64,000 nucleotides of DNA from Escherichia phage anhysbys: sequence record NC_052656.1; one strand, 5' to 3'. The position numbers and the translations under genes are program-made. Shown here in pieces: positions 7,692 through 55,462 of the stretch. The notes beneath the pieces are model-generated. The model made no database searches, had not been told where the DNA came from, and saw only the letters and a list, made by a program, of their open reading frames with translations. Within the stretch, counting starts at the first letter, position 1; every line of letters starts with the position of its first letter.

Positions 7692-7700
7692 TAGTCCTCC

Positions 7701-8132
7701 TTAGTTGTTAGCGAACTCAATAGTGAGGTCCACTTTACCATCATCAGAAATAACCATGTTTTTTGTATTTTTAAAGATGATATCTACTTTACCTTCACTT
7801 ACACGACAGAATGCAACACCATCTGCAACTTTATCAATATAATATTTGTAAGAAAGAATACCCACTTTACTACGACCAGCACCTTTTGTGAAAGAAGGGC
7901 TTACATCGAAACGGAAACCTTTAGAAGAAACAACACGGTAAGAACGTCCAGTTGGGATATGTTCAATAACAGAGACATTGTTCTCAACAACTTTTACAGC
8001 AAACTCTTCAGGATGATCCTCAACAATCATATGTGGGATGGCAAATGCCAACGCTTGTTTGTGTTTAATAACACCAGCACCCAGAGCACCAGCAGCTTTA
8101 ACTTTTGCATTCAGATCGATTGTCATACGCAT
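7701..8132 (-). CDS. Hypothetical protein
   Basis: 143-aa ORF. Confidence 0.4.
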   Translation of the reverse strand: MRMTIDLNAKVKAAGALGAGVIKHKQALAFAIPHMIVEDHPEEFAVKVVENNVSVIEHIPTGRSYRVVSSKGFRFDVSPSFTKGAGRSKVGILSYKYYIDKVADGVAFCRVSEGKVDIIFKNTKNMVISDDGKVDLTIEFANN

Positions 8133-42204: not shown

Positions 42205-42393
42205 ATGGCACGTTTAGCAGATAACCCTGTATTCTACCCCGTTCTTGATCTTTATGATGAATTGACATATGTTGTGGAGCGGTATAATTACAATGAAGAC
42301 CTCTTGGAGACAAACCTTAAAGTAGTTCTGATGAAAGCCTATCAGCAAGGGCAACGTGAAATTTTGGAGAGTATGAAAAATGCGAATAACTGA
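42205..42393 (+). CDS. Hypothetical small protein
   Basis: RBS aaaggagaaact ATG. Confidence 0.35.
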   Translation: MARLADNPVFYPVLDLYDELTYVVERYNYNEDLLETNLKVVLMKAYQQGQREILESMKNANN

Positions 42394-42922
42394 TGAATAT
42401 GTATTCTTCTTTTCACATAAAGATGTGTTTAGTAATTGGTATATTGCACCCTTTACAGAAACCGAACCAGGTTACAATCAGACATTTAATTGTGTCGAAC
42501 AATACATGATGTGGCGTAAAGCTTTGCTTTTTAATGATCACAACACTGCACAGGCTATTCTGACTCATAGTTTGATACGGAAAGATGAGAAGATCCAAGC
42601 TTATTACAAACGTATGGGTAGGGCAGTGTCAGATTTTGATAACAACGTATGGGAAGAGAACCGTGAGCGTATTGTTATGCGAGGTTTATGCTTGAAATAT
42701 GTACAGAATCCAGATTTGTATGCAGACTTACACCTTTACCAATACAAAACGTTTGTTGAAGCAAGTCCTTACGATAAGGTTTACGGTATTGGAATGGGAA
42801 TGTATGAACCAGGGGTGCTAAATCCGGTCAACTGGAAAGGGCAAAATCTTTTAGGTAAATATCATAACAAACTGATCGAAATACTTTTCCCAGACAAAAT
42901 ACCGCAGAGACGATATTTGTGA
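42380..42922 (+). CDS. NADAR-domain protein (YbiA-like)
   Basis: VFFFSHKDVFSNW, CVEQYMMWRKA, DKVYGIGMG, GQNLLG align with the E. coli YbiA pattern. Confidence 0.6.
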   Translation: MRITDEYVFFFSHKDVFSNWYIAPFTETEPGYNQTFNCVEQYMMWRKALLFNDHNTAQAILTHSLIRKDEKIQAYYKRMGRAVSDFDNNVWEENRERIVMRGLCLKYVQNPDLYADLHLYQYKTFVEASPYDKVYGIGMGMYEPGVLNPVNWKGQNLLGKYHNKLIEILFPDKIPQRRYL

Positions 42923-43011: not shown

Positions 43012-43162
43012 TGTCCTATACAAACCCTTGTCTTTTTCAGTTTGCATCACTAGGATTCGATCTGAGTGGGTTCCTGAAGGTCTGCCAATAAGATTAAAGG
43101 TTATCTCAAATTCCCATTACCTATTATCTCAAAAATCCCTCAAATTATTTAAACTTTTTAAG

Positions 43163-43350
43163 AATTTACAAAAGTGAAAGTTGAAAACCAAAATTTAAAG
43201 TTTAGGAAAATTATCTTAAAATGTTAGATACAAAACAAAACTCAAAAGTCAAGGAAAATTTTAAAAATTTTGCGCGCCCACAGTATTTAAAGTTTTTTTG
43301 CTTTTACAAAAATGAAAGTACAAAAGCAAAATTTAAAGTTTACAAAAATT
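43163..43350. repeat. AT-rich direct repeats (about 45 bp, two full copies plus one partial)
   Basis: ttacaaaagtgaaagttgaaaaccaaaatttaaagtttaggaaaatt vs ttacaaaaatgaaagtacaaaagcaaaatttaaagtttacaaaaatt. Confidence 0.6.
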
Positions 43351-43390
43351 TATGCAGATGGGGATGAGAAGAGTTCTCATGTGGAAATGC

Positions 43391-43469
43391 AAATGATAAT
43401 GATTCGCATTTAGGTTTATAAATGAGAATGATTCTTATTTAATAAAGTAAATGATAATCATTCTCATTT
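43391..43469. promoter_or_regulatory. Three Fur-box-like palindromes at 29-bp spacing
   Basis: aaatgataatgattcgcattt / aaatgagaatgattcttattt / aaatgataatcattctcattt; core AATGATAATCATT identical to the Fur box consensus GATAATGATAATCATTATC. Confidence 0.45.
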
Positions 43470-43727
43470 AGAGAATGACGCGCAGGGGCGGTGTTTGTCT
43501 CGCGCTCCCGTGTCCCCTCGCCATGTAATAAGAATAACAGATCCAACCAGGAAAGCAAGCGATTATTTTATCTTTACATTTCTTTACGAATATATAGCGC
43601 CCAGCCTACCGGCGATCAACCTTCCAACCAGTGCCCCTGGTATGTTAGCCCCGCCTTTACGCCGTGGGGTGGCGCTTCCTCTTCTGTATGTAAAACAGTA
43701 TAAGCCCTATCCCTGGGCTTGTCAAGA

Positions 43728-43994
43728 TTATTTTTTGTTTTCTTGCCAGGTCAGGACACCTAGCCAAAAATGAATATCACCTTTTCCCCAATGTGGTATA
43801 TTGCTTTCTTTCCCACCTTCACGCGCCCAGGTAAAACCGCCCGTGTAACTTTGTAATTGATAACTATCCTCGACCTTATAATCTGATAGGTTGAGAACGG
43901 TTTCAACCTTTAAGCCCGTTGCGCTTGCTACCTGGTGTACCGTGCCGCCTTGCCAGCCCAATGAGTGCATAAGGTGTAATGTAGTAGTTGTCAT
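43728..43994 (-). CDS. Hypothetical protein, isolated minus-strand gene in GC-richer segment
   Basis: 88-aa ORF. Confidence 0.35.
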   Translation of the reverse strand: MTTTTLHLMHSLGWQGGTVHQVASATGLKVETVLNLSDYKVEDSYQLQSYTGGFTWAREGGKESNIPHWGKGDIHFWLGVLTWQENKK

Positions 43995-44103: not shown

Positions 44104-44132
44104 TTGACGTTCCTCACCTGGTAGCGTAGTAT
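44104..44132 (+). promoter_or_regulatory. Sigma70-like promoter TTGACG-17-TAGTAT
   Basis: Upstream of 44268 gene. Confidence 0.4.
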
Positions 44133-44267: not shown

Positions 44268-44465
44268 ATGGCAACATTGCACATAGTAGCGAAAGCAGGA
44301 CAAATCAGCGTCGTGGTAAACGGTTTTACTGAGTTCAGTCATCCCCAGGATGATCATGAAACGGTTTTATCTTTCATTGATTCCCTGTTAGAAATGGGAG
44401 TCATTACAGAAGACCAGCACGCTACAAAGTGCAAGCGCGTTAATCAAATTGCAGGGATAGAATAA
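44268..44465 (+). CDS. Hypothetical small protein (array gene)
   Basis: 65-aa ORF. Confidence 0.45.
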   Translation: MATLHIVAKAGQISVVVNGFTEFSHPQDDHETVLSFIDSLLEMGVITEDQHATKCKRVNQIAGIE

Positions 44466-44471
44466 AAAGTA

Positions 44472-44530
44472 TTGACAACAAACAACAACCTGATAAGATG
44501 TATCACATAGGGCGGGAAGTGGTTTCCCGC
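44472..44530 (+). promoter_or_regulatory. Promoter-stem-loop cassette
   Basis: TTGACA, TGaTAAGAT extended -10, hairpin gcgggaa-gtggt-ttcccgc. Confidence 0.6.
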
Positions 44531-44555
44531 TCGTAACAGAAGAGAGATTATCATC

Positions 44556-44828
44556 ATGGCATCATATAGCGCAACAATGATCGTAGCTGGCACAACTGGT
44601 AAACCTATGAGCGGTGGCGGATCTTTCGCTAATATCAACATTGACGGGCGTTTATCCCTGGACGCAGCGATCACCGTGGCGCGGGAAACATTTAAGAAAG
44701 AATGTAAATTCAATAAACAAGATTATCTCGGTTTCGCTATTGAAAAAACCGCGCGTTTTGTTGATTATAAAAGCCCAAAAATGGTTGATACTACACTAAA
44801 AGCGCAAGATGTAGCGTTTTTGCTTTAA
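44556..44828 (+). CDS. Hypothetical small protein (array gene)
   Basis: 90-aa ORF after cassette and RBS. Confidence 0.5.
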   Translation: MASYSATMIVAGTTGKPMSGGGSFANINIDGRLSLDAAITVARETFKKECKFNKQDYLGFAIEKTARFVDYKSPKMVDTTLKAQDVAFLL

Positions 44829-44831
44829 GGC

Positions 44832-44886
44832 TTGACATTAACGAATAATTTGTTAATATGTTACATAAAGCGGGAATAGTTCCCGC
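44832..44886 (+). promoter_or_regulatory. Promoter-stem-loop cassette
   Basis: TTGACA, TAATAT, hairpin gcgggaa-tag-ttcccgc. Confidence 0.55.
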
Positions 44887-44904
44887 TATTTGTAAGGTGG
44901 TAGA

Positions 44905-45162
44905 ATGTTTTACATCAAATTAAAAGGTCACGTGATCGCGTTCAAAGATAACGCTTTTTACAGATTAGCAAAATATGCGTTAATACATCCCCACTATGTT
45001 TATATAAGGGGGCGTGATGAAATAAATATCTTTGATCAAACAACATGCGAGAACATCGAGATCCGCAAGGTTGGCGTACGTGATTATCGTACATCTTTCT
45101 ACCCTTGCAAGGATTCAGCAAGTCTTTTTAAAGTATGCCAATTGTTGAAAAAAGGTGGTTAA
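44905..45162 (+). CDS. Hypothetical small protein (array gene)
   Basis: 85-aa ORF. Confidence 0.5.
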   Translation: MFYIKLKGHVIAFKDNAFYRLAKYALIHPHYVYIRGRDEINIFDQTTCENIEIRKVGVRDYRTSFYPCKDSASLFKVCQLLKKGG

Positions 45163-45163
45163 T

Positions 45164-45721
45164 ATGGGCCGCGAATATGTGATCCAGTCTTGGGTAAAAC
45201 ATGAAGCAGATGATCCGCGCATCGTTCCCGATCATCTTATCGATGAATCCACGGGATATAGCGGTGAGCAAATAGGTAACAGATTAGCACGTAGTAACGG
45301 CAACGTAAAAGCGCGTTATGTGCGCCCTGGTTGGCTGGCAAATGGTAACGCTGATTTATCCAGTGCGGAAGATGCGAGCGACGGCGCGAAAGATAATCCT
45401 TTGTACAAAATTGATCCGGCTTTTCGTGTCCTGGATGAATACCCCAGCAAGATAGCGGCGCTTGATGAAGCTCTGGAAAGTAAGCGCATCACCTGGACCG
45501 CTTACAACATGGCAAAAAACGTACTTGATGGTAAATTGATTCAAGCCGAAAGAAAATTAGCCAAAATTGCAGCCATAGCCCAGGAGGAAGACGAGGAGAC
45601 AACGGAAGAGGAAGAGTACGAAGAGATCCCGCCGTTGTTGTGTGTTGATGCTTTTCCTGATTATCAGCCGACAGAGGAAGAAAAAAGGATCGCACTAGAA
45701 AACTTTGAAAATAGTCTTTGA
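45164..45721 (+). CDS. Hypothetical protein with highly acidic C-terminal region
   Basis: EEDEETTEEEEYEEIPPLL ... EEEK. Confidence 0.5.
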   Translation: MGREYVIQSWVKHEADDPRIVPDHLIDESTGYSGEQIGNRLARSNGNVKARYVRPGWLANGNADLSSAEDASDGAKDNPLYKIDPAFRVLDEYPSKIAALDEALESKRITWTAYNMAKNVLDGKLIQAERKLAKIAAIAQEEDEETTEEEEYEEIPPLLCVDAFPDYQPTEEEKRIALENFENSL

Positions 45722-45774
45722 CATATCGCCGCCACTGGCATAATATTTACCACGTAGGGCGGCAATGGTGCCGC
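45718..45774 (+). promoter_or_regulatory. Promoter-stem-loop cassette
   Basis: TTGACA-17-TAATAT, hairpin gcggca-atgg-tgccgc. Confidence 0.6.
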
Positions 45775-45803
45775 TCATAGTGAAATTATGCAAGAGGTTT
45801 ACA

Positions 45804-45899
45804 ATGATTAATAAAGAAAATAGCTTGACGGTTGGAACGATTAACGCTATCATTTTCGCCGTTCCATTTTGGGTTGTAGTAGCGGCTATTATTTTCTAA
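45804..45899 (+). CDS. Small hydrophobic peptide (31 aa)
   Basis: RBS caagaggtttaca ATG; own cassette. Confidence 0.35.
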   Translation: MINKENSLTVGTINAIIFAVPFWVVVAAIIF

Positions 45900-45908
45900 A
45901 AAATATTC

Positions 45909-45969
45909 TTGACAACGTTTTTTAATCTGATAAGATGTATCACATAGGGCGGCGGAATACTTCCCCGCC
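45909..45969 (+). promoter_or_regulatory. Promoter-stem-loop cassette
   Basis: TTGACA-16-TAAGAT, hairpin ggcggcggaa-tac-ttccccgcc. Confidence 0.55.
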
Positions 45970-45989
45970 AAAACAAAAAGGGTAACACA

Positions 45990-46352
45990 ATGAGCAAGCA
46001 AATTAATACTATCATGTTTAATCTGGTATCTTTCCGCGACGATATGAAAAATTTACCACGTGAAACGGTTGATATTCATGTTTCAGCTTATCGCGCCCTT
46101 ATTGACATGTTACCGCTAAAACGTGATCAATATGCCGCTAACACGATGCTTAATGCTATGCTTAAAAAGATGATTCAAACGGATCTCACCCTAGCGTATG
46201 AGTATCAAGGGCGCTTATATGCAACTTATAACAAGGCGGTACCTGGTCTGGGAAGTACCGAAGAGTTGCACGGCTTAAACCTGGATCAAAACACTTGGGA
46301 TAGTATGCGCCGCGTTATGGTATGGGCCGAAAGCGGTAAAATTTACGAATAA
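45990..46352 (+). CDS. Hypothetical protein (array gene)
   Basis: 120-aa ORF. Confidence 0.5.
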   Translation: MSKQINTIMFNLVSFRDDMKNLPRETVDIHVSAYRALIDMLPLKRDQYAANTMLNAMLKKMIQTDLTLAYEYQGRLYATYNKAVPGLGSTEELHGLNLDQNTWDSMRRVMVWAESGKIYE

Positions 46353-46358
46353 AAACGG

Positions 46359-46417
46359 TTGACACTGTTTAAACTTCTGGTATAGTTTACCACATAGGGC
46401 GGGAAGTGGTTTCCCGC
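46359..46417 (+). promoter_or_regulatory. Promoter-stem-loop cassette
   Basis: TTGACA-16-TATAGT (TGg extension), hairpin gcgggaa-gtggt-ttcccgc. Confidence 0.6.
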
Positions 46418-46440
46418 CAACAATGAAAAAGGTTATCATC

Positions 46441-46806
46441 ATGGCTATTAATATTAATGTTTCCGCTTATGCTACCCTGGCTGCCACGGCTAAAATTGAA
46501 TTGTCCAGCATTGAGGCGGTGCACATTAGCGCCCGTCGCTGGTTTCAACAGTCTTACGGTAACACATATTTTTCTTTAATGGTTGACGTTGAGATCGGCG
46601 GTAAACTGATCGAGGTGGTTAACGTTCCGTTTCAATATGGCTATGGTGATCATTTTGATACCGTCGCCCTGGAAGAATTTAGCAAGGTTATTAATATGGA
46701 AGGTAAAGAGTTTTCACGCGGCGCGTATCTTTCCCGTTTTTGCCGTGACAATGGGATCACTGTATACAGTCATGCGAGCGATGTTAAACGTAAAAAAGAT
46801 TTATAA
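46441..46806 (+). CDS. Hypothetical protein (array gene)
   Basis: 121-aa ORF. Confidence 0.5.
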   Translation: MAININVSAYATLAATAKIELSSIEAVHISARRWFQQSYGNTYFSLMVDVEIGGKLIEVVNVPFQYGYGDHFDTVALEEFSKVINMEGKEFSRGAYLSRFCRDNGITVYSHASDVKRKKDL

Positions 46807-46812
46807 AAAGCA

Positions 46813-46871
46813 TTGACAGCACGAATAAAAAGAGTAAACTGTATTACATAGAGAGCGGGAACACTTCCCGC
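46813..46871 (+). promoter_or_regulatory. Promoter-stem-loop cassette
   Basis: TTGACA-16-TAAACT, hairpin gcgggaa-cac-ttcccgc. Confidence 0.55.
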
Positions 46872-46895
46872 CTCACTGAAAAAGAGAGAAAAATC

Positions 46896-47135
46896 ATGGC
46901 TAAATCTAAAATGTACAACGGTCACAAAAACAAAACTCATTGGAATGTAAACCTTTGGATTAATAACGATGAATCGTTATACCGGTTGGCCCAAGATTTT
47001 ATTAACGCTAATGCTAATCGTAATGATGCGGCGCGGGATATGATGCTTTTTCTGGAACAAACTGGACAAGATAAAACGCCAGACGGTTTCAAATATAGCA
47101 CTACTGCGATCCGTGCCGCGATGGTTGGAATGTAA
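46896..47135 (+). CDS. Hypothetical small protein (array gene)
   Basis: 79-aa ORF. Confidence 0.5.
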   Translation: MAKSKMYNGHKNKTHWNVNLWINNDESLYRLAQDFINANANRNDAARDMMLFLEQTGQDKTPDGFKYSTTAIRAAMVGM

Positions 47136-47144
47136 TAAAAACAG

Positions 47145-47203
47145 TTGACAACGTTTAAAATTAGTGTAAGATGTATCACATAGGGCGGGAAGTGGTTTCC
47201 CGC
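47145..47203 (+). promoter_or_regulatory. Promoter-stem-loop cassette
   Basis: TTGACA-16-TAAGAT, hairpin gcgggaa-gtggt-ttcccgc. Confidence 0.6.
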
Positions 47204-47225
47204 CAAAACAGAGAGATTAAAGATT

Positions 47226-47453
47226 ATGGCTATCAATATTGTTCGCGTATCTGGCACCGTTGGCACTTCCCAGGTCATTGCCGTTGTAACAAACAAAAAG
47301 ATTAATGATGTATGTGAGATCTTGAATAAGTGGGCTGTTGCTAATTTTGGGGAATATGCAAGCGTTGAGTACATCGAATCCTACCAGGTGCCAACCATCA
47401 GCCTAACCGATCTCAACGTTGATCGCCTGTTATGCCTGGACGAATTAATCTGA
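47226..47453 (+). CDS. Hypothetical small protein (array gene)
   Basis: 75-aa ORF. Confidence 0.5.
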   Translation: MAINIVRVSGTVGTSQVIAVVTNKKINDVCEILNKWAVANFGEYASVEYIESYQVPTISLTDLNVDRLLCLDELI

Positions 47454-47463
47454 AAAAGATTGT

Positions 47464-47520
47464 TGACACCGGAAAGAAAAAGAGTAAACTGTATTACGTA
47501 GGGCGGCAATGGTGCCGCTC
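47464..47520 (+). promoter_or_regulatory. Promoter-stem-loop cassette
   Basis: TTGACA-16-TAAACT, hairpin gcggca-atgg-tgccgc. Confidence 0.6.
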
Positions 47521-47543
47521 ACAACAGAAGAGAGATTATTACG

Positions 47544-47759
47544 ATGGCCAATATCCGCACACTGTTAAAAAATGCAAGTCAAGTTTTATTTTCAGATGAC
47601 GAGTATTTCAATAAAGACATTACAGGCGTAAAAAATCTTAAAGATGTAAAGGATGTGATAGGTATTCGCGGATCTTTACGTAAAGGTGACTACTACGGCA
47701 ATAAAGTACAATATAAATTAAATCAGTCTTATGATTTTACTTTGACAATTATTTCATAA
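47544..47759 (+). CDS. Hypothetical small protein (array gene)
   Basis: 71-aa ORF. Confidence 0.5.
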   Translation: MANIRTLLKNASQVLFSDDEYFNKDITGVKNLKDVKDVIGIRGSLRKGDYYGNKVQYKLNQSYDFTLTIIS

Positions 47760-47764
47760 AACCG

Positions 47765-47827
47765 CTTGCAATCTTAATAAAATAAAGTAAACTGTATTAC
47801 ATCAAGGCGGCGGAATGGTCCACCGCC
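47765..47827 (+). promoter_or_regulatory. Promoter-stem-loop cassette (TTGCAA -35 variant)
   Basis: TTGCAA-17-TAAACT, hairpin ggcggcgga-atgg-tccaccgcc. Confidence 0.5.
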
Positions 47828-47851
47828 TAACAAAGAGAAGAGGAAAACACC

Positions 47852-48019
47852 ATGATCACTTTCGCTACCCGTGAAGCCGCTCGCAACGTTGCCCGTAAAG
47901 TTAACGCCGCCAACCTGGGCGCTACGTTTAAAGCACCTGTAAAAGATGAATCAGGAAAATGGATCTTCCCTGGTCTGCGTCACGCTGATAAGCTAGGCAC
48001 TTTAAGCCTTAAAAAATAA
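47852..48019 (+). CDS. Hypothetical small basic protein (55 aa)
   Basis: RBS agaggaaaacacc ATG. Confidence 0.4.
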   Translation: MITFATREAARNVARKVNAANLGATFKAPVKDESGKWIFPGLRHADKLGTLSLKK

Positions 48020-48022
48020 TCG

Positions 48023-48060
48023 TTGACTTTTCGTTATAGCGCCTTATAATGGGCGCTATA
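48023..48060 (+). promoter_or_regulatory. Consensus promoter TTGACT-16-TATAAT embedded in a DNA palindrome (operator-like)
   Basis: tatagcgcc TTATAAT gggcgctata inverted repeat brackets the -10. Confidence 0.5.
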
Positions 48061-48093
48061 GAGAAGAGAAACCACTACTGACAAGGAAACACC

Positions 48094-48315
48094 ATGATCA
48101 CTTTCGCTATTGTCGCCGTTGTTGCTGGTCAAGTTTACGTAAACGATACATTCACCACAGAAGACAAGGCCGCAGGAGATATAACCGCCGTTTACAACGA
48201 GTGCAAGGCAGTAGAAAGGATGTTAGCGCCTTGTATGTTAATGAGTGAACGCCAGGACGGGATAACAGTGTTTACTAACATTGAGACAGGGTACCAAATG
48301 GTAGTAACAAAATAA
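48094..48315 (+). CDS. Hypothetical small protein (array gene)
   Basis: 73-aa ORF. Confidence 0.45.
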   Translation: MITFAIVAVVAGQVYVNDTFTTEDKAAGDITAVYNECKAVERMLAPCMLMSERQDGITVFTNIETGYQMVVTK

Positions 48316-48318
48316 AGC

Positions 48319-48375
48319 TTGACACGGATTTAATTTTCAGTAAACTGTTACACGTAGGGCGGGAATAGTTCCCGC
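48319..48375 (+). promoter_or_regulatory. Promoter-stem-loop cassette
   Basis: TTGACA-16-TAAACT, hairpin gcgggaa-tag-ttcccgc. Confidence 0.6.
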
Positions 48376-48393
48376 TAAAAAGAGAGAAAAACC

Positions 48394-48747
48394 ATGAAAG
48401 CACAAAATGCAATTAAAGAGTACATCCTTGCCGCTATCGATTTTAATGATTACGGTATTACAACCGAAAAAGAGAAGATCGCGGAATTGATGCGCCGTTT
48501 TAATTCCGAGTACTGGTACCCTGATAACCAATCACGTTTTAATTATAGTATTGTTAAAGCACTTGCATCATGGTTACAAGGTTTGCCATCAGATATTAAT
48601 ATCGCTTTCGAATATTGGGAAATTGATCGCTTGTTAACATCCTGGGGATACATTAAAGAGAATAGCAGCGATGATAAAATCCAACGAGAAAGGGAAAATT
48701 ATTGGCTTTATATTGCAGGCGTGATCCTTGCTTGCTCTTATGAATGA
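48394..48747 (+). CDS. Hypothetical protein (array gene)
   Basis: 117-aa ORF. Confidence 0.5.
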   Translation: MKAQNAIKEYILAAIDFNDYGITTEKEKIAELMRRFNSEYWYPDNQSRFNYSIVKALASWLQGLPSDINIAFEYWEIDRLLTSWGYIKENSSDDKIQRERENYWLYIAGVILACSYE

Positions 48748-48753
48748 TAAACC

Positions 48754-48806
48754 TTGACAATTTTACAAAACAGTTTAAATTAATAATATAGCGGCAATGG
48801 TGCCGC
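48754..48806 (+). promoter_or_regulatory. Promoter-stem-loop cassette
   Basis: TTGACA, AT-rich -10, hairpin gcggca-atgg-tgccgc. Confidence 0.5.
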
Positions 48807-48826
48807 TCATATAAAGAGGAAACAAA

Positions 48827-48973
48827 ATGAATACATCTAATCGCGCAGAAAAAATCCAATCTTCCAAGATCCGCAAGGCCTGGAACGAGGAAGTGATCCG
48901 CAAAGGCGACAAGCGCAATAAAACAAAGCGCGGGAAGAGTGACAAATATAATTGGATGGATTTAGAGGATTAA
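48827..48973 (+). CDS. Small basic protein (48 aa)
   Basis: RBS aaagaggaaacaaa ATG; followed by terminator. Confidence 0.4.
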   Translation: MNTSNRAEKIQSSKIRKAWNEEVIRKGDKRNKTKRGKSDKYNWMDLED

Positions 48974-48980
48974 CATAACA

Positions 48981-49007
48981 AGGGCGCACCAAGCGCCCTT
49001 TCTTTTT
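48981..49007 (+). terminator. Rho-independent terminator (same sequence as 53865-53890)
   Basis: agggcgc-accaa-gcgccct then tttcttttt. Confidence 0.7.
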
Positions 49008-49028
49008 ACATGTAGAGGATAAACAAAG

Positions 49029-49214
49029 ATGACTTTAAGCGAGCTTAAAACAGCCTACAACGCAACGTTAAAAATAGCCGTGCGTTACCGTGATGCGTAC
49101 GGTTTTATCGCGCAGGGCGTGATCCTGGGCTTTTCTGACGATGGTTTGATCTATGTTGATGCACATTATAACAAGGTAAAACCTGAAAACGTCATTAGCA
49201 TAAAATATCTTTAA
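49029..49214 (+). CDS. Hypothetical small protein (array gene)
   Basis: 61-aa ORF. Confidence 0.45.
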   Translation: MTLSELKTAYNATLKIAVRYRDAYGFIAQGVILGFSDDGLIYVDAHYNKVKPENVISIKYL

Positions 49215-49220
49215 AAGTGG

Positions 49221-49280
49221 TTGACACCATAACCGGACCTGTTAAACTGTATTACATCAGGCGGGGAATAGTTCCCCACC
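49221..49280 (+). promoter_or_regulatory. Promoter-stem-loop cassette
   Basis: TTGACA-16-TAAACT, hairpin ggcggggaa-tag-ttccccacc. Confidence 0.55.
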
Positions 49281-49299
49281 ATACAAAAAGGTAAATATT

Positions 49300-49506
49300 A
49301 TGATCACCGCAAAACAAGAGAAAATCATTATCGACGTTGCAGCCGTTGCCGCTATTGCTATTATTGGATCTTATTATGATACCCGTTTCCCGTCGGCTAT
49401 GCATGAGATCGCCGCCGTTGCATCAGTTGGCGTACTGTTTTACGTTGGTAAACGCTATTTATCACCAATGATTAACAAGCTGACACCGTGGAAAAATAAA
49501 GGTTGA
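49300..49506 (+). CDS. Small membrane protein (array gene)
   Basis: Hydrophobic IIIDVAAVAAIAIIG. Confidence 0.45.
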   Translation: MITAKQEKIIIDVAAVAAIAIIGSYYDTRFPSAMHEIAAVASVGVLFYVGKRYLSPMINKLTPWKNKG

Positions 49507-49558
49507 TCCTGTTTTATATTGTGTTATAGTTATCGTGTAGGGCGGCAATGGTGCCGCG
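49503..49558 (+). promoter_or_regulatory. Promoter-stem-loop cassette (TTGATC -35 variant)
   Basis: TTGATC-16-TGtTATAGT, hairpin gcggca-atgg-tgccgc. Confidence 0.5.
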
Positions 49559-49577
49559 CCCCTTTGAGGATGCAATC

Positions 49578-49862
49578 ATGAGTAAAGCTAACACCGTGCT
49601 AATGTTTTCCCTGATTAATGATCCCGCTTACTTGTCCAACATGACGCAGGAGGGTAACACATTAACGGCAACATTCACCAATAAGCTTGACCGGGTGATC
49701 ATCATCTCACTGAAAACAGTTAGTAAAGGCTTTTACTCGTTAGCTTATCATTGGATCACCGATACCGATGAGACAAGCCAGGACTATAGCGCCCCTTTCC
49801 CTGAATCAATGGCACGGGAGATCATCGCCGCCGTTGTAAATGATGGTTTGTTTACTGCATAA
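49578..49862 (+). CDS. Hypothetical protein (array gene)
   Basis: 94-aa ORF. Confidence 0.5.
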   Translation: MSKANTVLMFSLINDPAYLSNMTQEGNTLTATFTNKLDRVIIISLKTVSKGFYSLAYHWITDTDETSQDYSAPFPESMAREIIAAVVNDGLFTA

Positions 49863-49880
49863 AATAATTTAGAAAAAGGC

Positions 49881-49937
49881 TTGCAATCATTTTGAGATAG
49901 TGTATATTTAATTCATAGGGCGGCGGGAATAGTTCCC
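49881..49937 (+). promoter_or_regulatory. Promoter-stem-loop cassette (degenerate)
   Basis: TTGCAA-16-TATATT, hairpin gggaa-tag-ttccc. Confidence 0.4.
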
Positions 49938-49960
49938 AAAGCAAACGAGAGGATTACACG

Positions 49961-50080
49961 ATGAGCAAGTACACAGTAGAATACACGGTAGAAAATCCGG
50001 CAGTATCCGAAGGTAAAAAGATGACATTTGCCATCAGTATAATCGCTTTCGTTGTCACTATCTTATCAATCATCTTATAA
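49961..50080 (+). CDS. Small membrane peptide (39 aa)
   Basis: RBS gagaggattacacg ATG; hydrophobic C-terminus. Confidence 0.35.
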   Translation: MSKYTVEYTVENPAVSEGKKMTFAISIIAFVVTILSIIL

Positions 50081-50090
50081 GGTGCACACC

Positions 50091-50252
50091 ATGAAAACAA
50101 CAGATATTATCAAAGAGATCGCCCATGCCGCTGGCGTTGAGATCGAGGAAGTGATCGCGCTCAATCTTACAGAAAACGATCTGCGCAACTATGAAGCGGA
50201 AAGCGTGAAAGCAAGCGGCGCGGTCCTGGTATATGATCCGGCTAACAAGTAA
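50091..50252 (+). CDS. Hypothetical small protein
   Basis: 53-aa ORF. Confidence 0.35.
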   Translation: MKTTDIIKEIAHAAGVEIEEVIALNLTENDLRNYEAESVKASGAVLVYDPANK

Positions 50253-50261
50253 GGGGATAAC

Positions 50262-50372
50262 ATGAATCCGAAAGATATGCAAGCATGGAAAGGGTACGAC
50301 GATCTAAGCGCCTTGCGCAATAAGTCAAGCCGTAACCTTAGACGGTTGGAAGCAAAGAAAAAGAAAAAATAG
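50262..50372 (+). CDS. Small basic peptide (36 aa)
   Basis: RBS aaggggataac ATG. Confidence 0.3.
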   Translation: MNPKDMQAWKGYDDLSALRNKSSRNLRRLEAKKKKK

Positions 50373-50373
50373 T

Positions 50374-50430
50374 TTGACAAGTCCGCCTAGTCTGATAATA
50401 TGTATCTTGTAGGGCGGCAATGGTGCCGCT
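50374..50430 (+). promoter_or_regulatory. Promoter-stem-loop cassette
   Basis: TTGACA-16-TGaTAATAT, hairpin gcggca-atgg-tgccgc. Confidence 0.6.
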
Positions 50431-50450
50431 CACAAGAAGAGAGAAAAATC

Positions 50451-50735
50451 ATGAAAATCACAAAAAGCCTAACTAATTATGCAGCACGTCGCGGATTATG
50501 TTTAACCGTTGAAAACTTAGGGAAAGAAGACTTTTTGTGTTTTTGGGAGCTTGAAAATGATTGCGAGTGGATGTTTTCTTATTCTATCTGCGAAGATCAA
50601 AACGGTTGTTTGTTAACCTGGCGCGGTAATATCTATTTACCGGAAGAAATTAAAGAAGAGTTACCAGGTACGATCATGACAGAGAGACAGCTTAAGGAAA
50701 TGATTAATTTTGTAGGGCAAAACATTAAAAAATAA
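50451..50735 (+). CDS. Hypothetical protein (array gene)
   Basis: 94-aa ORF. Confidence 0.5.
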   Translation: MKITKSLTNYAARRGLCLTVENLGKEDFLCFWELENDCEWMFSYSICEDQNGCLLTWRGNIYLPEEIKEELPGTIMTERQLKEMINFVGQNIKK

Positions 50736-50736
50736 T

Positions 50737-50797
50737 TTGACAGCACGCAAACAACGTAGTAAAGTTTACCACATAGGGCGGCGGAATGGTCCACCGC
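50737..50797 (+). promoter_or_regulatory. Promoter-stem-loop cassette
   Basis: TTGACA-17-TAAAGT, hairpin ggcggcgga-atgg-tccaccgc. Confidence 0.55.
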
Positions 50798-50820
50798 TCA
50801 CAACAGAAGAGAAACAAATC

Positions 50821-50991
50821 ATGATCCCGACTATGTTTTATGTATCGCGCAAAGGTCACAATATTTTTTGGTCTGAAGATTTAAATGAAGCTATGACGTT
50901 TGCCCGTGATCGTGTTGCTATCGGTGGCGTTAACATCACCGTAACCGATGAAAATGGCATTGAATACTATAACGGCGACGATGAAGAATAA
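50821..50991 (+). CDS. Hypothetical small protein (array gene)
   Basis: 56-aa ORF. Confidence 0.45.
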   Translation: MIPTMFYVSRKGHNIFWSEDLNEAMTFARDRVAIGGVNITVTDENGIEYYNGDDEE

Positions 50992-50999
50992 TTAATGAG

Positions 51000-51020
51000 G
51001 CGGGGGAGTATTCCCCGCCG
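51000..51020 (+). promoter_or_regulatory. Promoterless intergenic stem-loop of the cassette type
   Basis: ggcggggga-gta-ttccccgcc, no -35/-10 upstream, no U-tract. Confidence 0.4.
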
Positions 51021-51038
51021 TCAATAAAGAGGTAAATC

Positions 51039-51308
51039 ATGAAAATATCATTGGACGTTGCAATCAAGGCCATCGAATCCGGTTACATCCTGGTAAAAGA
51101 TGATAAGGCTAAAATAGTGCATCATGTTAACAAGGAAACAGGCGAAAGCATGATCACATATAAAGCCGCCTACTTTCTCCAATCAGTAGCAGATCCGCGC
51201 GTACAACGCCAGGTTATGGCGGCTATTGCTAAAAAATTATGTGCTTTACAGGGTACAAGTTTTAACGAGATCGCCCCGTGTTTTGAGTGGTCAAGCTTGA
51301 AAAAATAA
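51039..51308 (+). CDS. Hypothetical protein (array gene)
   Basis: 89-aa ORF. Confidence 0.5.
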   Translation: MKISLDVAIKAIESGYILVKDDKAKIVHHVNKETGESMITYKAAYFLQSVADPRVQRQVMAAIAKKLCALQGTSFNEIAPCFEWSSLKK

Positions 51309-51309
51309 T

Positions 51310-51371
51310 TTGACAACAATTATAAATCGGGTAGAATGTATTTCGTAGGGCGGGGCAATAAAGCAACGCCC
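51310..51371 (+). promoter_or_regulatory. Promoter-stem-loop cassette
   Basis: TTGACA-16-TAGAAT, hairpin gggcg...cgccc. Confidence 0.5.
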
Positions 51372-51389
51372 ATTAATGAGGGTAGAATC

Positions 51390-51494
51390 ATGTTAGAGAA
51401 AATTTTCACGGTTGTAATAGTGGGCCTGGCGTTATCGGTTGGAGTGGTTGCAACTATGGCTAACATGATCCTATCTTCCCACGGTATCGGTTAA
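51390..51494 (+). CDS. Small membrane peptide (34 aa)
   Basis: MLEKIFTVVIVGLALSVGVVATMANMILSSHGIG. Confidence 0.35.
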   Translation: MLEKIFTVVIVGLALSVGVVATMANMILSSHGIG

Positions 51495-51504
51495 GGTGAA
51501 ACAA

Positions 51505-51720
51505 ATGATCACGAACAAAACAGGCAAAACGGAATTTTTACGCGGCTTACAAGTTGGTAAGCCTGAGATCTGGCATTGCACGAAGTCCGCGCATAATGAA
51601 ATGAAAGATTTTACCGCTACTTTACAACGTGTTAAAATATCTATCACACAGAAAAAAGCCTTGTTAGTAGTAGAAAACGAGATCCCGCAAACTATTATTA
51701 TTGTCGAGCGTACAGCATGA
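51505..51720 (+). CDS. Hypothetical small protein
   Basis: 71-aa ORF with RBS aaggtgaaacaa. Confidence 0.45.
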   Translation: MITNKTGKTEFLRGLQVGKPEIWHCTKSAHNEMKDFTATLQRVKISITQKKALLVVENEIPQTIIIVERTA

Positions 51721-52103
51721 AAACAGAAATCATTATTGAAATCATCAACGGCTATAAAGAAGCCTTTATTTTTGCTGAATCAGCAAGGGATCATGAAGGT
51801 AATTTTATTGATAACTTAGACGATTATGATTTTTCTCCTAGCGCGGATCAACGGATCGCACAGGATGTAACAGCCTTTATTAATGCTAATCTTGCCGCTA
51901 TCTCTGAGGCAATGAGCGACGGCGCAACAGCCAACCAGATCGGGAATGATTTACATTTTACCCGTAACGGTCACGGCGTAGGCTTTTGGGATCGCCCTGA
52001 AATATACACCACTAACACGGCGAACCGCCTAACCAATGCAGCTAAGTTTATGCCGAACGTGTCGGCTTACGTTGGTGAAGATAATTTTATTTATATTGAA
52101 TAA
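51717..52103 (+). CDS. Hypothetical protein
   Basis: 128-aa ORF, ATGA overlap. Confidence 0.5.
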   Translation: MKTEIIIEIINGYKEAFIFAESARDHEGNFIDNLDDYDFSPSADQRIAQDVTAFINANLAAISEAMSDGATANQIGNDLHFTRNGHGVGFWDRPEIYTTNTANRLTNAAKFMPNVSAYVGEDNFIYIE

Positions 52104-52109
52104 AAAGTA

Positions 52110-52166
52110 TTGACACAGATCGCCAGTGTGCTAATATTTACCACGTAGGGCGGCAATGGTGCCGCT
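52110..52166 (+). promoter_or_regulatory. Promoter-stem-loop cassette
   Basis: TTGACA-16-TGcTAATAT, hairpin gcggca-atgg-tgccgc. Confidence 0.6.
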
Positions 52167-52187
52167 CCCCGAAAAAGGTAAAACATT

Positions 52188-52379
52188 ATGAAAACTATCA
52201 GCTACCTGGAATCGAATAACATGTTTTTTGCGCCCGTTGATGAAATCATCGAAGCATTAAACAACGAGGAAGGGATCAATGGTTTATCTTATAGCCAGCT
52301 TTTAGGAATGGTTGCAGCAAATGAGGAGCTTGCTTACTATGTTGAAAATTTTGATGAAGCTGTAATCTTTACAAAATAA
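52188..52379 (+). CDS. Hypothetical small protein (array gene)
   Basis: 63-aa ORF. Confidence 0.45.
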   Translation: MKTISYLESNNMFFAPVDEIIEALNNEEGINGLSYSQLLGMVAANEELAYYVENFDEAVIFTK

Positions 52380-52382
52380 TCC

Positions 52383-52439
52383 TTGATCTAATCTCTCAGA
52401 TAACTTATATTTAATGCGTAGGGCGGCAATGGTGCCGCC
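52383..52439 (+). promoter_or_regulatory. Promoter-stem-loop cassette (TTGATC -35 variant)
   Basis: TTGATC, TTATAT, hairpin ggcggca-atgg-tgccgcc. Confidence 0.5.
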
Positions 52440-52457
52440 GATAATGAGGAAAACAAA

Positions 52458-52757
52458 ATGGAAACTATCGCTATTGTTACCGTAGAAAAACTGGTTGTTG
52501 GTGATGTATTCGCGTTAATGGTGCCTAACAGCAGCAAGCTGGGCGCTTATGAAGTAATGGATCATAAAAATGAATCATTTGGCGACGGTTGCACAATGGC
52601 GGTAAAATCTTTAAAGGATGGAATCATCCGCCAGGCTAACTGGCACAAAGGGAATCAAGTCGGTTTAATATCAGCTAATTTCTTGCCAGAAGAGCAAACA
52701 TTAGATCAACTATCAGGCGGTAAGACGTTAGCCGAACTACTGGAAACAGCGATCTAA
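52458..52757 (+). CDS. Hypothetical protein (array gene)
   Basis: 99-aa ORF. Confidence 0.5.
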   Translation: METIAIVTVEKLVVGDVFALMVPNSSKLGAYEVMDHKNESFGDGCTMAVKSLKDGIIRQANWHKGNQVGLISANFLPEEQTLDQLSGGKTLAELLETAI

Positions 52758-52765
52758 TCGACAAG

Positions 52766-52781
52766 GGGCGGCAACGCCCCC
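52766..52781 (+). promoter_or_regulatory. Promoterless intergenic stem-loop
   Basis: ggggcg-gcaa-cgcccc. Confidence 0.4.
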
Positions 52782-52810
52782 ATTAAACGCAATAGGAAGA
52801 GGATAGACAC

Positions 52811-53095
52811 ATGAAAAAGATGATCGCAGTAGTTGCCCTGGTTGTTGGTATTAACGCGCCTGTAATGGCGAAAGAGTTGCCAGAATCCATCACGTTAACC
52901 GATATTAACGCAGTGAATCGGATCGGTGTTAATTATCGCCTATGCCTTGCCGCTAAAACTTTCCAGGACGGCACAACAGAGTACTACGGATTCGAGGGTA
53001 TCCGCTGCGGTGAGCTTTCACGCGACCTTAAGGAAGATCCAGACCTTGAGGCCATACCGATGACCGTAAACGGTAAAGCCCACGTAAACCGCTAA
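52811..53095 (+). CDS. Secreted small protein
   Basis: Signal peptide MKKMIAVVALVVGINAPVMA. Confidence 0.5.
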   Translation: MKKMIAVVALVVGINAPVMAKELPESITLTDINAVNRIGVNYRLCLAAKTFQDGTTEYYGFEGIRCGELSRDLKEDPDLEAIPMTVNGKAHVNR

Positions 53096-53097
53096 CC

Positions 53098-53232
53098 ATG
53101 AGAAAGGTAATCATCACAATGGGGATCGTAGTAGCAACGCTGGCGCTTATCCCTTTCATGGTTGAATATGTGCTGATTAATGTTGTCCTGGTAGTCAGTG
53201 ACCTATTGGAAACGGTTGGCACCTGGTTTTAA
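53098..53232 (+). CDS. Small membrane peptide (44 aa)
   Basis: Hydrophobic; followed by weak terminator. Confidence 0.35.
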   Translation: MRKVIITMGIVVATLALIPFMVEYVLINVVLVVSDLLETVGTWF

Positions 53233-53406
53233 GATAATAAATAGGGCTTGCAATAGTCCTATTTTTTGTTATACTTATTGAACGGGCGGCACCTGGGAGC
53301 AGGGGAAGATAATCACCGGAAGACCCCGCTATATATTGATAACTAACGCCTATCAAACAACAAAACATCAAAGGAACAAACTATCAAATCTTTACAATTC
53401 TACCTA

Positions 53407-53467
53407 TTGACACCGGATCACGCTTACATTATTATTTATCACGTAGGGCGAGCAATACAGCAAGCCC
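53407..53467 (+). promoter_or_regulatory. Promoter-stem-loop cassette (degenerate hairpin)
   Basis: TTGACA-17-TATTAT, then gtagggcgagcaatacagcaagccc. Confidence 0.45.
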
Positions 53468-53484
53468 ACAAAGAGGAAAAGAAG

Positions 53485-53853
53485 ATGAGCAAATCAGCAA
53501 TTAAAGCAGTTGAAAAAGCGCAAGAAGTGATCGCAACGTCTACCACTGGCGCAAAGGTTAATCTGATCGGTTATCTGACAGATGAAACTATCCGTAAAAA
53601 TTGGCGTAATGCTGATTTACTGGCTTGCTTATTGATTAATAGTGTCGCTAATGCTTTCCAGTGTGAAACAGCCGAGAGCCTGGAGGAAAACTTGTTTGAT
53701 AATATGGATCAAGCCATTGAAACCTATATACAATCAAACCTGGATAGCTGGAACAGTAAAACATGGCCAGACAGTTTACGCGATACAACTGATCAACTGA
53801 TCCGCCTTGCCGTGATGGTTGAACGCGATAACGTTTACAACAGCACAAAGTAA
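53485..53853 (+). CDS. Hypothetical protein (last array gene)
   Basis: 122-aa ORF with RBS aagaggaaaagaag. Confidence 0.5.
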   Translation: MSKSAIKAVEKAQEVIATSTTGAKVNLIGYLTDETIRKNWRNADLLACLLINSVANAFQCETAESLEENLFDNMDQAIETYIQSNLDSWNSKTWPDSLRDTTDQLIRLAVMVERDNVYNSTK

Positions 53854-53890: not shown

Positions 53891-54923
53891 GCCCGAACAA
53901 TGTTGATAGCTTTCGCCTATGAAAAACCGACACAGAACAAAATTGAATAAATCGCGGTATCGAGCTAATCAACCATTAAACGAATAACCATACCTCCCAG
54001 GGTAACAGGCTGTTAGAGAGCCATTTATAGCGGTTAAAATCGATCAACAACCAACAACAAACCATCAAAAACACCCTTTTACCTCCTTTCTAGTGCAATG
54101 ATAACCATTATCATCTACCCATGATTATCTATGCAATATAAGCGCATAATTATAATGTTGATAATAGTTCGCAACAACTAACCAACAAACAACATAAAAC
54201 AAGAAGCAAACTAATCATAATCAAAGGAATAATAGCAAGATGATTGATAACGACAAACAATCAAACCATGATGAATACTAAGCAAGATAACGATAACACG
54301 ACAAAACAACCAACTAACGAACAATAACAAACGAAACCATTAAAATAATAACTATTGCCATAATAGTGACTGAATGAAATCATTACAAAACGAATCATTC
54401 CCAGGATCATCATTAGCACGCTATGCCGGACACATAGCGAGCTAATAATAAGCCAACTACACCCCAACAATCATAACCATCGGTGATGGTTATTTCTTGT
54501 TACTGCGTAGCTTGCAATAATTGCAAGCGTAATTACGCTTACACTTATTGCGCTGGCTTATTATTAGCATTATATGTAATTACCAAGATCATAACATTAA
54601 CGCAATAACAATAATCATTGTAATGGTTACAATATGAAATCATTGGCAAGATGAATAATTGCACGTAGCAACATGAGCGAATAGCGACAGGTTGCATAGT
54701 GTGCACATAATAGAATAAAAGTCAATAATTTTGGGGGCGAAATGTTACCGCCACAGGCGGGAATGTTGAGCACTAAGAAAAGAGATAAACCTTAATCATG
54801 GGGGCGTAAATATCCGCAGGATTGCCAACGGCGATCCGGTAGGATGTTGAGCATCTTCTCTTAAACGTAAATAAAATCAGAAAATTCTTGATTTATTTTA
54901 GTTTTTATGTTAATAAACGTTTA

Positions 54924-54943
54924 AATAATAATCATTCTCATAT
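54924..54943. promoter_or_regulatory. Fur-box-like palindrome
   Basis: aataataatcattctcatat. Confidence 0.35.
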
Positions 54944-55101
54944 GAATAATAGTCTGCTTGTCATGAGCGGGATTAGTTGACATTGTTCCGTCATATGATG
55001 AGGTTGCCAACCTATTGATAAATAAGTGTTTGTGTGATTTATAATCAAGTGGCCCACCTTGTCGCTATGTTGGCATGAGCCTTGCATAAGTCATTGAATA
55101 C

Positions 55102-55122
55102 GAATGATAATTATTCTCATTC
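55102..55122. promoter_or_regulatory. Fur-box-like near-perfect palindrome
   Basis: gaatgataattattctcattc. Confidence 0.4.
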
Positions 55123-55462
55123 GCATGATATTTGGGAATTGTCGCTGCGTGGACCTGACGGCCCGAAAATTCGCGTTAAGCACTTCTTACGTATGCGCCA
55201 TGATTTTTGCCATATGATATTGATTCTATTAGATATTCTTGCCATGATTGCCATGAAACAGGGTGTCCCGAAATAATCTCTCCCCGTAGATATTTTGGGT
55301 TACTTTTTATACAAGAGTGGGGTGTCAAAAATAATCGATATATATGGGATAATTGATAGGAATCCCCTATGGTAATTCGATTGTAATTGCCGAAGATTGA
55401 TCGTATGATGTTGGTGATTGATGATTGCCATGAAAGATGGCTAACGATGAGAGGAGATTGTC

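Follow-up and report, generated by a model that had tools for sequence, protein, structure and literature searches.

Predicted Fur-box arrays in gene-free DNA at the genome ends and early-region border of phAPEC8-like phages

Why a virulent phage should carry, in DNA free of genes, a regularly spaced set of palindromes resembling operators of the host regulator Fur is the question raised by this locus. To our knowledge, Fur boxes are the textbook operators of iron genes, and the few phage-borne cases lie on iron-related or toxin cargo genes of prophages. The window, by which is meant the whole 64-kb stretch of DNA analysed here, belongs to a Phapecoctavirus (phAPEC8-like, Stephanstirmvirinae) and shows 92-98% identity to many records by megablast. 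Phapecoctaviruses are virulent E. coli myoviruses with genomes of ~150 kb. No tRNA or tmRNA was found in the 64-kb window.

An earlier note on this DNA had described three 21-bp palindromes at an exact spacing of 29 bp, accompanied by further copies elsewhere. Both statements are confirmed: the three units follow one another at 29 + 29 bp from start to start, and the three copies outside the array lie at the positions given here, which for two of them differ slightly from the earlier ones. The six sites are listed together with a degenerate fourth unit of the array, and all scores in bits refer to a 19-bp palindromic Fur matrix learnt from E. coli K-12 promoters.

43362-43382, unstranded: degenerate fourth unit, GGATGAGAAGAGTTCTCATGT, which keeps the 29-bp period; its homologue in phAPEC8_ev052 scores 16.6 bits
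43391-43411, unstranded: predicted Fur box 1, AAATGATAATGATTCGCATTT, 25.5 bits, with a 6-bp-offset secondary site at 43386 (17.6 bits)
43420-43440, unstranded: predicted Fur box 2, AAATGAGAATGATTCTTATTT, 24.1 bits
43449-43469, unstranded: predicted Fur box 3, AAATGATAATCATTCTCATTT, 27.4 bits, the top score in the window, with a 6-bp-offset secondary site at 43444 (14.0 bits)
54096-54116, unstranded: predicted Fur box 4, 21.4 bits, ~210 bp past the terminator of the small-gene array and identical in the divergent relative L041
54923-54943, unstranded: predicted Fur box 5, 23.1 bits, inside the inferred terminal repeat, 75 bp from its left boundary
55102-55122, unstranded: predicted Fur box 6, 27.0 bits, also inside the inferred terminal repeat, whose right boundary is 57 bp away; a secondary site offset by 6 bp lies at 55097 (19.6 bits)

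Each of the six sites has 1-3 mismatches to TGATAATnATTATCA. The core AATGATAATCATT, previously said to be shared by the units, is exact in the third, and the first and second units differ from it by 1 and 2 bases, respectively. With up to 2 mismatches allowed, this core has 24 matches against 5.6 expected, and none of 100 shuffles reached 24.

The sites fall, as had also been proposed, in the non-coding regions that flank an array of small genes on both sides. The features that define this layout are the following.

44268-53853, + strand: small-gene array, lying between the two box-bearing non-coding regions and forming the right-terminal block of the packaged genome
53862-53884, + strand: intrinsic terminator closing the small-gene array
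54850-55178, unstranded: inferred direct terminal repeat of 329 bp, representing the physical genome ends, mapped from relatives that are ~97% identical

Boxes 1-3 and the degenerate fourth unit lie at the inner edge of the 11.8-kb right-terminal block, the distance from the 29-bp box array to the right genome end being 11.7-11.8 kb, or 7.8% of 151 kb. The first promoter of the small-gene array is at 44104, ~650 bp from the box array, and the gene for an 88-aa protein (43994 to 43728, minus strand) lies between the two. The complete genome of phAPEC8_ev052 shows how confined such sites are, since all of its matches of at least 16 bits fall within the same two non-coding regions, there at 6185-7728 and 143810-145073, which together amount to 1.9% of the genome. 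As a separate observation, Pfam assigns a NADAR domain (E = 2e-35) to the product of the gene at 42380-42922, which several records annotate as 'GTP cyclohydrolase II'.

The resemblance to Fur boxes was assessed with a position weight matrix that we built ourselves from 12 regions and that is not a curated one. Its training set comprised the K-12 Fur-regulated promoter regions of fepA-fes, fepD-entS, fepB-entC, fhuA, fecI, cirA, tonB, exbB, fur, ryhB, fiu and fhuE; the matrix, 19 bp long and palindromic, was derived de novo by exhaustive seeding with no phage input, and it yields the familiar AATGATAATnATTATCATT motif. Scored in this way, the six sites are the six top matches in the 64 kb, at 21.4-27.4 bits, in agreement with the Fur-box likeness claimed from the letters alone. 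Genuine E. coli sites score 11.6-24.4 bits with the same matrix (leave-one-out, 12 K-12 sites). Sites of at least 21 bits, of which the window has these six, are expected 0.027 times in whole-window shuffles and 0.0045 times when the non-coding regions alone are shuffled, and 242 kb of E. coli DNA holds only five of them even with the twelve training sites included. A test in the reverse direction, with a matrix made from the six phage sites, found its best matches in 242 kb of K-12 DNA at ryhB (28.6 bits), fecI, entC/fepB, fhuA, exbB and fecA, and about 12 of the 15 top K-12 matches fall at Fur-controlled promoters. More specifically, box 5 differs from the Fur box of E. coli ryhB at just one of its 19 positions (18 of 19 match), and the weaker overlapping sites offset by 6 bp beside three of the boxes are a trait of natural Fur operators. 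A Zur box was considered and rejected, the best match to GAAATGTTATAWTATAACATTTC having mismatches at 9 of 23 positions. By sequence, the palindromes are thus equivalent to Fur operators and would serve as high-affinity operators for host Fur; that Fur does occupy the sites on phage DNA is, judged on the same grounds, highly probable.

Boxes of this kind are conserved among relatives and recur elsewhere. In IMG/VR relatives whose neighbouring protein is 42-70% identical, one to five boxes are kept at the same place amid diverged flanks, and the 29-bp spacing recurs in several lineages of these relatives. Box 3 is the best-conserved copy among them and holds a constant distance to the RNA module described below; in L041, boxes 4, 5 and 6 form conserved islands in DNA that has otherwise diverged. 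A scan for AATGAKAATNATTMTCATT in IMG/VR, a collection whose contigs may include prophage or host DNA, found among the matches listed many unrelated contigs with clusters of two to nine high-scoring boxes. Among the matches listed, the spacing of unique pairs of adjacent boxes has a sharp mode at 29 bp, with 17 of 94 pairs; ten of these 29-bp pairs are from the window's subfamily, and the other seven were found outside it, on contigs that include a T5-like one and one of 346 kb. On two contigs of ~120 kb the boxes stand beside DnaA boxes. A synthetic four-box array used as a query retrieved 622 phage records (235 from Escherichia, 227 from Salmonella and 64 from Klebsiella, with others from Pectobacterium, Cronobacter and Vibrio), and boxes also occur in T5-like phages, in Vequintavirinae and their relatives, in a jumbo phage and in Vibrio phages.

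On the inner side of the small-gene array, boxes 1-3 adjoin a set of predicted promoters and RNAs and, on their other side, AT-rich repeats.

43470-43725, - strand: module of two tandem sigma-70 promoters and predicted structured non-coding RNAs running into box 3, from a promoter scan, conservation and consensus folds
43725-43697, - strand: promoter P1, TTGACA-17-TATACT, strong, with a predicted structured RNA-1 of ~110-130 nt
43558-43531, - strand: promoter P2, TTGCTT-16-TATTCT, with a predicted second short RNA of ~55 nt that ends at box 3
43141-43350, unstranded: AT-rich direct repeats of 72 nt, 138 bp apart, with 29-nt sub-repeats containing AAAATTTAAAGTTT and a GC content of 0.30, just beyond the box array

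P2 is weak in the window, with 8 of 12 consensus positions, and is stronger in relatives. The hexamers of both promoters are conserved in 16 IMG/VR contigs of 83-153 kb (most of them 142-153 kb), in which the spacers have diverged, and relatives of the module show frame-breaking indels, a variable hairpin and consensus folds. Because the hexamers are kept where the spacers differ, and because of the frame-breaking indels and the variable hairpin, the region of the module is judged to be non-coding; the annotated phAPEC8_00257 ORF over 43495-43773 was rejected as a coding sequence on account of those indels. One covarying base pair was found in RNA-1 and two were found in RNA-2, covariation support that is thin because the RNAs are so conserved. 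A search of both non-coding regions with the covariance models of Rfam 15 gave only sub-threshold chance matches. In several relatives a third promoter occurs 18 nt past the last box, and beyond the AT-rich repeats lies the terminator of the upstream + strand genes.

Several further details of this region may be recorded. RNA-1 contains CGCCACCCCACGGCG-AAAGGCGGGGCUAAC, a possible pseudoknot and the variable hairpin, and RNA-2 has a conserved GAGACAAACACC loop. Directly upstream of the -35 hexamer of P2, at 43575-43592 on the minus strand, a tandem TGTAAAGA-N3-TGTAAAGA is kept in all relatives; it is a direct repeat with a period of 11 bp that resembles response-regulator-type sites. In the relative L028 (IMGVR_UViG_2974574029_000001), an ORF that by eye resembles an HNH-type homing endonuclease is inserted in RNA-1 at GATCGCTGGTA; this spot is without the usual boxes, and there are boxes ~1 kb away. 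At the position of the AT-rich repeats, relatives have repeated motifs of the TTTCGAAAATGAAA type; such repeats may serve as an unwinding element or be bound by a phage protein. The 88-aa protein belongs to PHROG 19316 and has an N-terminal HTH-like stretch, GGTVHQVASATGLKVETVLNL; only its N-terminal 40 residues are conserved in distant phages.

These neighbours bear on a reading in which the likeness to Fur sites is coincidental and the palindromes are operators of some phage protein, or else RNA hairpins or terminators in the P1/P2 transcripts. We consider this very unlikely. Read-through from P1/P2 would transcribe the array, which as RNA folds far better than shuffled sequence (z = -6.8), and a terminator-like hairpin includes half of box 3; however, any palindrome folds well as RNA, and any set of palindromes behaves in this way. 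The phage boxes favour G/C at +/-4 (TGAGAAT) more than the textbook consensus does, but the TGAGAAT/ATTCTCA half-sites are also present in the ryhB, fhuA, fecI and exbB operators. Against coincidence also stands the fact that an independent E. coli matrix scores the sites above most true Fur sites and that the reverse test recovers the Fur regulon.

The earlier note had likewise allowed for operators or iterons of a phage protein that merely resemble Fur sites, and the present evidence disfavours this. The adjoining 88-aa protein, with its HTH-like motif, would be a candidate binder, but its gene is missing from many box-bearing loci and present at loci without boxes. In the lineage L006 the module and boxes are inverted relative to this gene, so that, taken together with its absence from many box loci, the boxes belong with the RNA module and not with the 88-aa protein. 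As a cognate binder the protein was rejected: it has no Pfam match, matches only PHROGs of unknown function, shows no similarity to T5 A2, and its presence does not track the boxes. Compared with iterons of a replication origin, the array has AT-rich repeats adjoining it and promoters pointing towards it; yet its units are palindromes, no initiator gene was identified, and the boxes occur in unrelated phages. A phage-encoded Fur was sought with the E. coli protein as tblastn query; the window, the whole genome of ev052 and T5 1-12 kb all gave noise only. The same boxes are found in T5-like phages, as in Vequintavirinae and relatives, jumbo and Vibrio phages, and no protein shared by the first 12 kb of T5 and the window was detected. 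Thus, with no such shared protein and no Fur homologue in the phage, the common binder is most simply host Fur.

If host Fur is the binder, the arrangement of its sites is not that of an ordinary repressor. No convincing -35/-10 pair overlapping any box was found on either strand or in the conserved alignments, so the classical geometry of Fur repression is absent. Two candidate promoters, TTGATT-17-TAATAA upstream of box 5 and TTCCCA-17-AATAAT over box 6, were rejected as not conserved or without a proper -10. Boxes 1-3 are placed at about +55 to +135 downstream of P2; for boxes 5 and 6, the closest promoter on the + strand is 150-330 bp further downstream. The suggestion that the boxes place the flanking transcripts under iron control was therefore not borne out, given that no box lies on the promoter of the small-gene array, two boxes lie in the terminal repeat, and the 29-bp array lies downstream of the opposite-strand promoters P1 and P2.

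The best explanation, and one that in our judgement stands about evenly balanced between right and wrong, is that a block of Fur gates transcription at the borders of the terminal early region. A Fur footprint, made by two overlapping dimers at each box, spans about 29 bp. When iron is plentiful, dimers of Fe2+-Fur would occupy every 29-bp unit, and the occupied units would join into a continuous protein block. Such a block would stop or gate RNA polymerase, acting both on the P1/P2 transcripts at 43470 and, in concatemers, on transcripts that read through the repeat junction. Under iron starvation no block would form, and transcription over the borders of the early region would thereby follow the iron state of the host. 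Since no gene lies downstream of P1/P2 on the minus strand, a roadblock that vanished in low iron would bring no obvious benefit.

The boxes on the far side of the small-gene array have a different setting. In the Schickermooser record, the two ends are an exact repeat of 329 bp, which maps to window 54850-55178 (its authors give a 328-bp terminal repeat), and many Phapecoctavirus records start at window 54850. A repeat of 342 bp reported for BME3, a Justusliebigvirus, corresponds to the same stretch and likewise has two boxes inside. These mappings place boxes 5 and 6 within the direct terminal repeat, and because the ends map to 54850-55178 the window spans the junction of two genome ends. 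The WPEC1 record (161 kb), examined for a long terminal repeat, was left out of this comparison because its gene order appears rearranged. The BME3 record (PP239276.1, 146096-147371 and 1-342) has an 861-bp tandem duplication that includes the terminal-repeat region, together with a 342-bp overlap of the record ends; duplication and overlap are probably an assembly effect of the terminal repeat. The two boundaries of the repeat carry a similar motif, GTTR^AGCAYYTCT, in the form GGATGTTG^AGCATCTTCT at the left boundary and CGCGTTA^AGCACTTCTT at the right one; it may be a terminase recognition or cut site.

Other observations were made in this region. The boundary motif occupies 54841-54860 and 55171-55190, and a third copy, ATGTTGAGCACTAAG, is found at 54763-54777, 87 bp upstream; both left-hand copies are preceded by a GGGGGCG...hairpin element. 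A 49-aa ORF between boxes 5 and 6 was rejected as it is not conserved in L041. A large nested inverted repeat at 54432-54577 has 24-nt outer arms 98 nt apart; its inner hairpin occupies 54473-54493, a palindrome covers 54514-54551, and the hairpin shows a compensatory change in L041, ATAACCATC/GATGGTTAT versus ATAACTATC/GATAGTTAT. Positions 54120-54420 are strongly strand-asymmetric and A/C-rich (GC skew -0.26, AT skew +0.32), with words of the AAC/CAA type, many Fur-like hexamer fragments and no ORF.

A parallel to this arrangement is offered by T5. In that phage (AY587007.1, locus L164, 9473-9636), the annotated palindromes E, G and I and the direct repeat C are Fur boxes by matrix score, with 23.5, 27.4 and 23.7 bits at positions 9473, 9577 and 9612 under the same Fur matrix. 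They are situated in the injection-stop (iss) region, Repeat Region 3 within the left terminal repeat, just left of the 7.9% nick. In T5-like records, the features annotated where the four-box array matches are often 'terminal repeat' or 'injection stop signal'. Davison's analysis of the T5 iss makes no mention of Fur, and nothing on Fur boxes in phAPEC8-like or T5 DNA was found in the literature searched.

The two systems are alike in that a terminal block of small early genes is bordered on its inner side by a large untranslated region, 29-bp units are also seen in T5-like contigs, the terminal block takes up 7.9% of the genome in T5 (the first-step-transfer segment) and 7.8% here, and the boxes lie in or adjoin terminal repeats in both phages. 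They differ in that there is no sequence homology between them: BLASTP of T5 1-12 kb against the window revealed no shared protein, and no A1/A2/dmp genes were found. T5 has DnaA boxes and nine TGTGCAAATCCGACA repeats, whereas neither non-coding region of the window contains a DnaA box (TTWTNCACA), its five being scattered elsewhere. The T5 repeat is 10 kb long and holds the whole early block, in contrast to the 329-bp repeat of the window phage with only boxes 5 and 6, and phAPEC8-like phages are not known to inject their DNA in two steps. The equivalent array in T5 follows terminators, and no promoter is annotated in its repeat region, a context no less suited to DNA handling than to transcriptional control.

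The strongest rival to a transcriptional gate is that Fur on the arrays is an accessory factor in handling DNA at the genome ends, serving in the generation or recognition of the terminal repeat during packaging, much as IHF serves at lambda cosB, in pairing or protecting repeat copies after entry, or in pausing DNA entry where the terminal early block has its inner edge, in the manner of the T5 injection-stop signal. We regard it as rather unlikely, and the evidence falls on both sides. The distances of boxes 5 and 6 from boundaries that carry a cut-site-like motif, the two boxes in the BME3 repeat, the T5 palindromes beside the nick, the annotations of T5-like records and the near-equal position of the array at 43362-43469 (7.8% from the right end) and of the T5 first-step-transfer boundary (7.9%) are all consistent with it. 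So is the enrichment of boxes near contig ends, where among the matches listed 23 of 42 boxes on short whole contigs lie within 1 kb of an end against 12.7 expected (p = 0.004); this enrichment, however, could stem from genuine termini or simply from assemblies breaking at repeated arrays. Against the proposal, an essential step of the phage would hang on host iron status. T5 infects iron-starved, FhuA-induced cells well, and no report of T5 needing Fur was found in the literature searched. Further points against it are the lack of DnaA boxes in the non-coding regions and of A1/A2 homologues.

Titration of Fur, also raised in the earlier note, was weighed as well. As a decoy, hundreds of replicated genomes with six or seven strong boxes each would soak up Fur, derepress iron uptake and RyhB-type sparing, and so feed iron-dependent ribonucleotide reductases. 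The phage family does encode class Ia and class III ribonucleotide reductases, and the near-consensus boxes are clustered without attached promoters. Derepression of the Fur regulon by multicopy Fur boxes is, moreover, the principle of the Fur titration assay. A decoy has no need, however, of a fixed position, a 29-bp phase or placement in a terminal repeat. One infecting genome would offer about a dozen dimer sites to the thousands of Fur molecules in a cell, and derepressing host genes would be pointless in T5 because T5 degrades host DNA early. On balance, a decoy function seems quite unlikely.

The preferred reading, a Fur block at the borders of the terminal early region, may be set beside known systems. 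The chromosomal Fur operators of E. coli (ryhB, fhuA, fecI, entC/fepB, exbB and cirA, and aerobactin iucA) share with the phage sites the 19-bp palindrome AATGATAATnATTATCATT and the 6-bp overlaps, and the phage sites score as high or higher. Those operators overlap the -35/-10 of an iron-related gene, whereas the phage sites belong to a virulent phage and stand in phase, 29 bp from one to the next, where there are no genes. Fur boxes are also borne on temperate-phage cargo, as at the sitABCD operon of lambdoid phages and at the stx1 promoter. There, as here by predicted sites, phage-borne DNA is wired to the host Fur regulon; unlike the boxes in the window, however, they are single operators at the promoters of iron-related prophage cargo genes, and the window phage is virulent with no iron gene attached. 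The IHF site in lambda cosB and the chromosomal cluster datA, which binds and titrates DnaA, are cases of site clusters for host proteins in non-coding DNA that serve DNA handling or titration, and they resemble the present arrays as candidate clustered sites for an abundant host DNA-binding protein in non-coding DNA, although the protein differs.

A broader proposal joins these strands, and we hold it to be improbable as a whole: large virulent enterobacterial phages would have in common, probably by convergence, Fur-site arrays as part of the machinery of their terminal repeats and early regions, Fur, and with it the iron state of the cell, would be the missing trans-acting factor at the T5 injection stop, and phAPEC8-like phages would deliver or express their 7.8% block first, with the 29-bp array marking the stop.

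What is new here is that virulent phages have near-perfect predicted Fur sites, arranged as phased arrays where there are no genes, both at the ends of the genome and where the early region is bordered. These predicted arrays are conserved across a subfamily and recur in T5-like and other phages. The T5 injection-stop region, which has been without an explanation for decades, thereby gains a named candidate host factor in Fur. If Fur loads at the arrays, the iron status of the host would feed into the first steps of infection, and this would be relevant to phage therapy in the iron-starved environment of a host.
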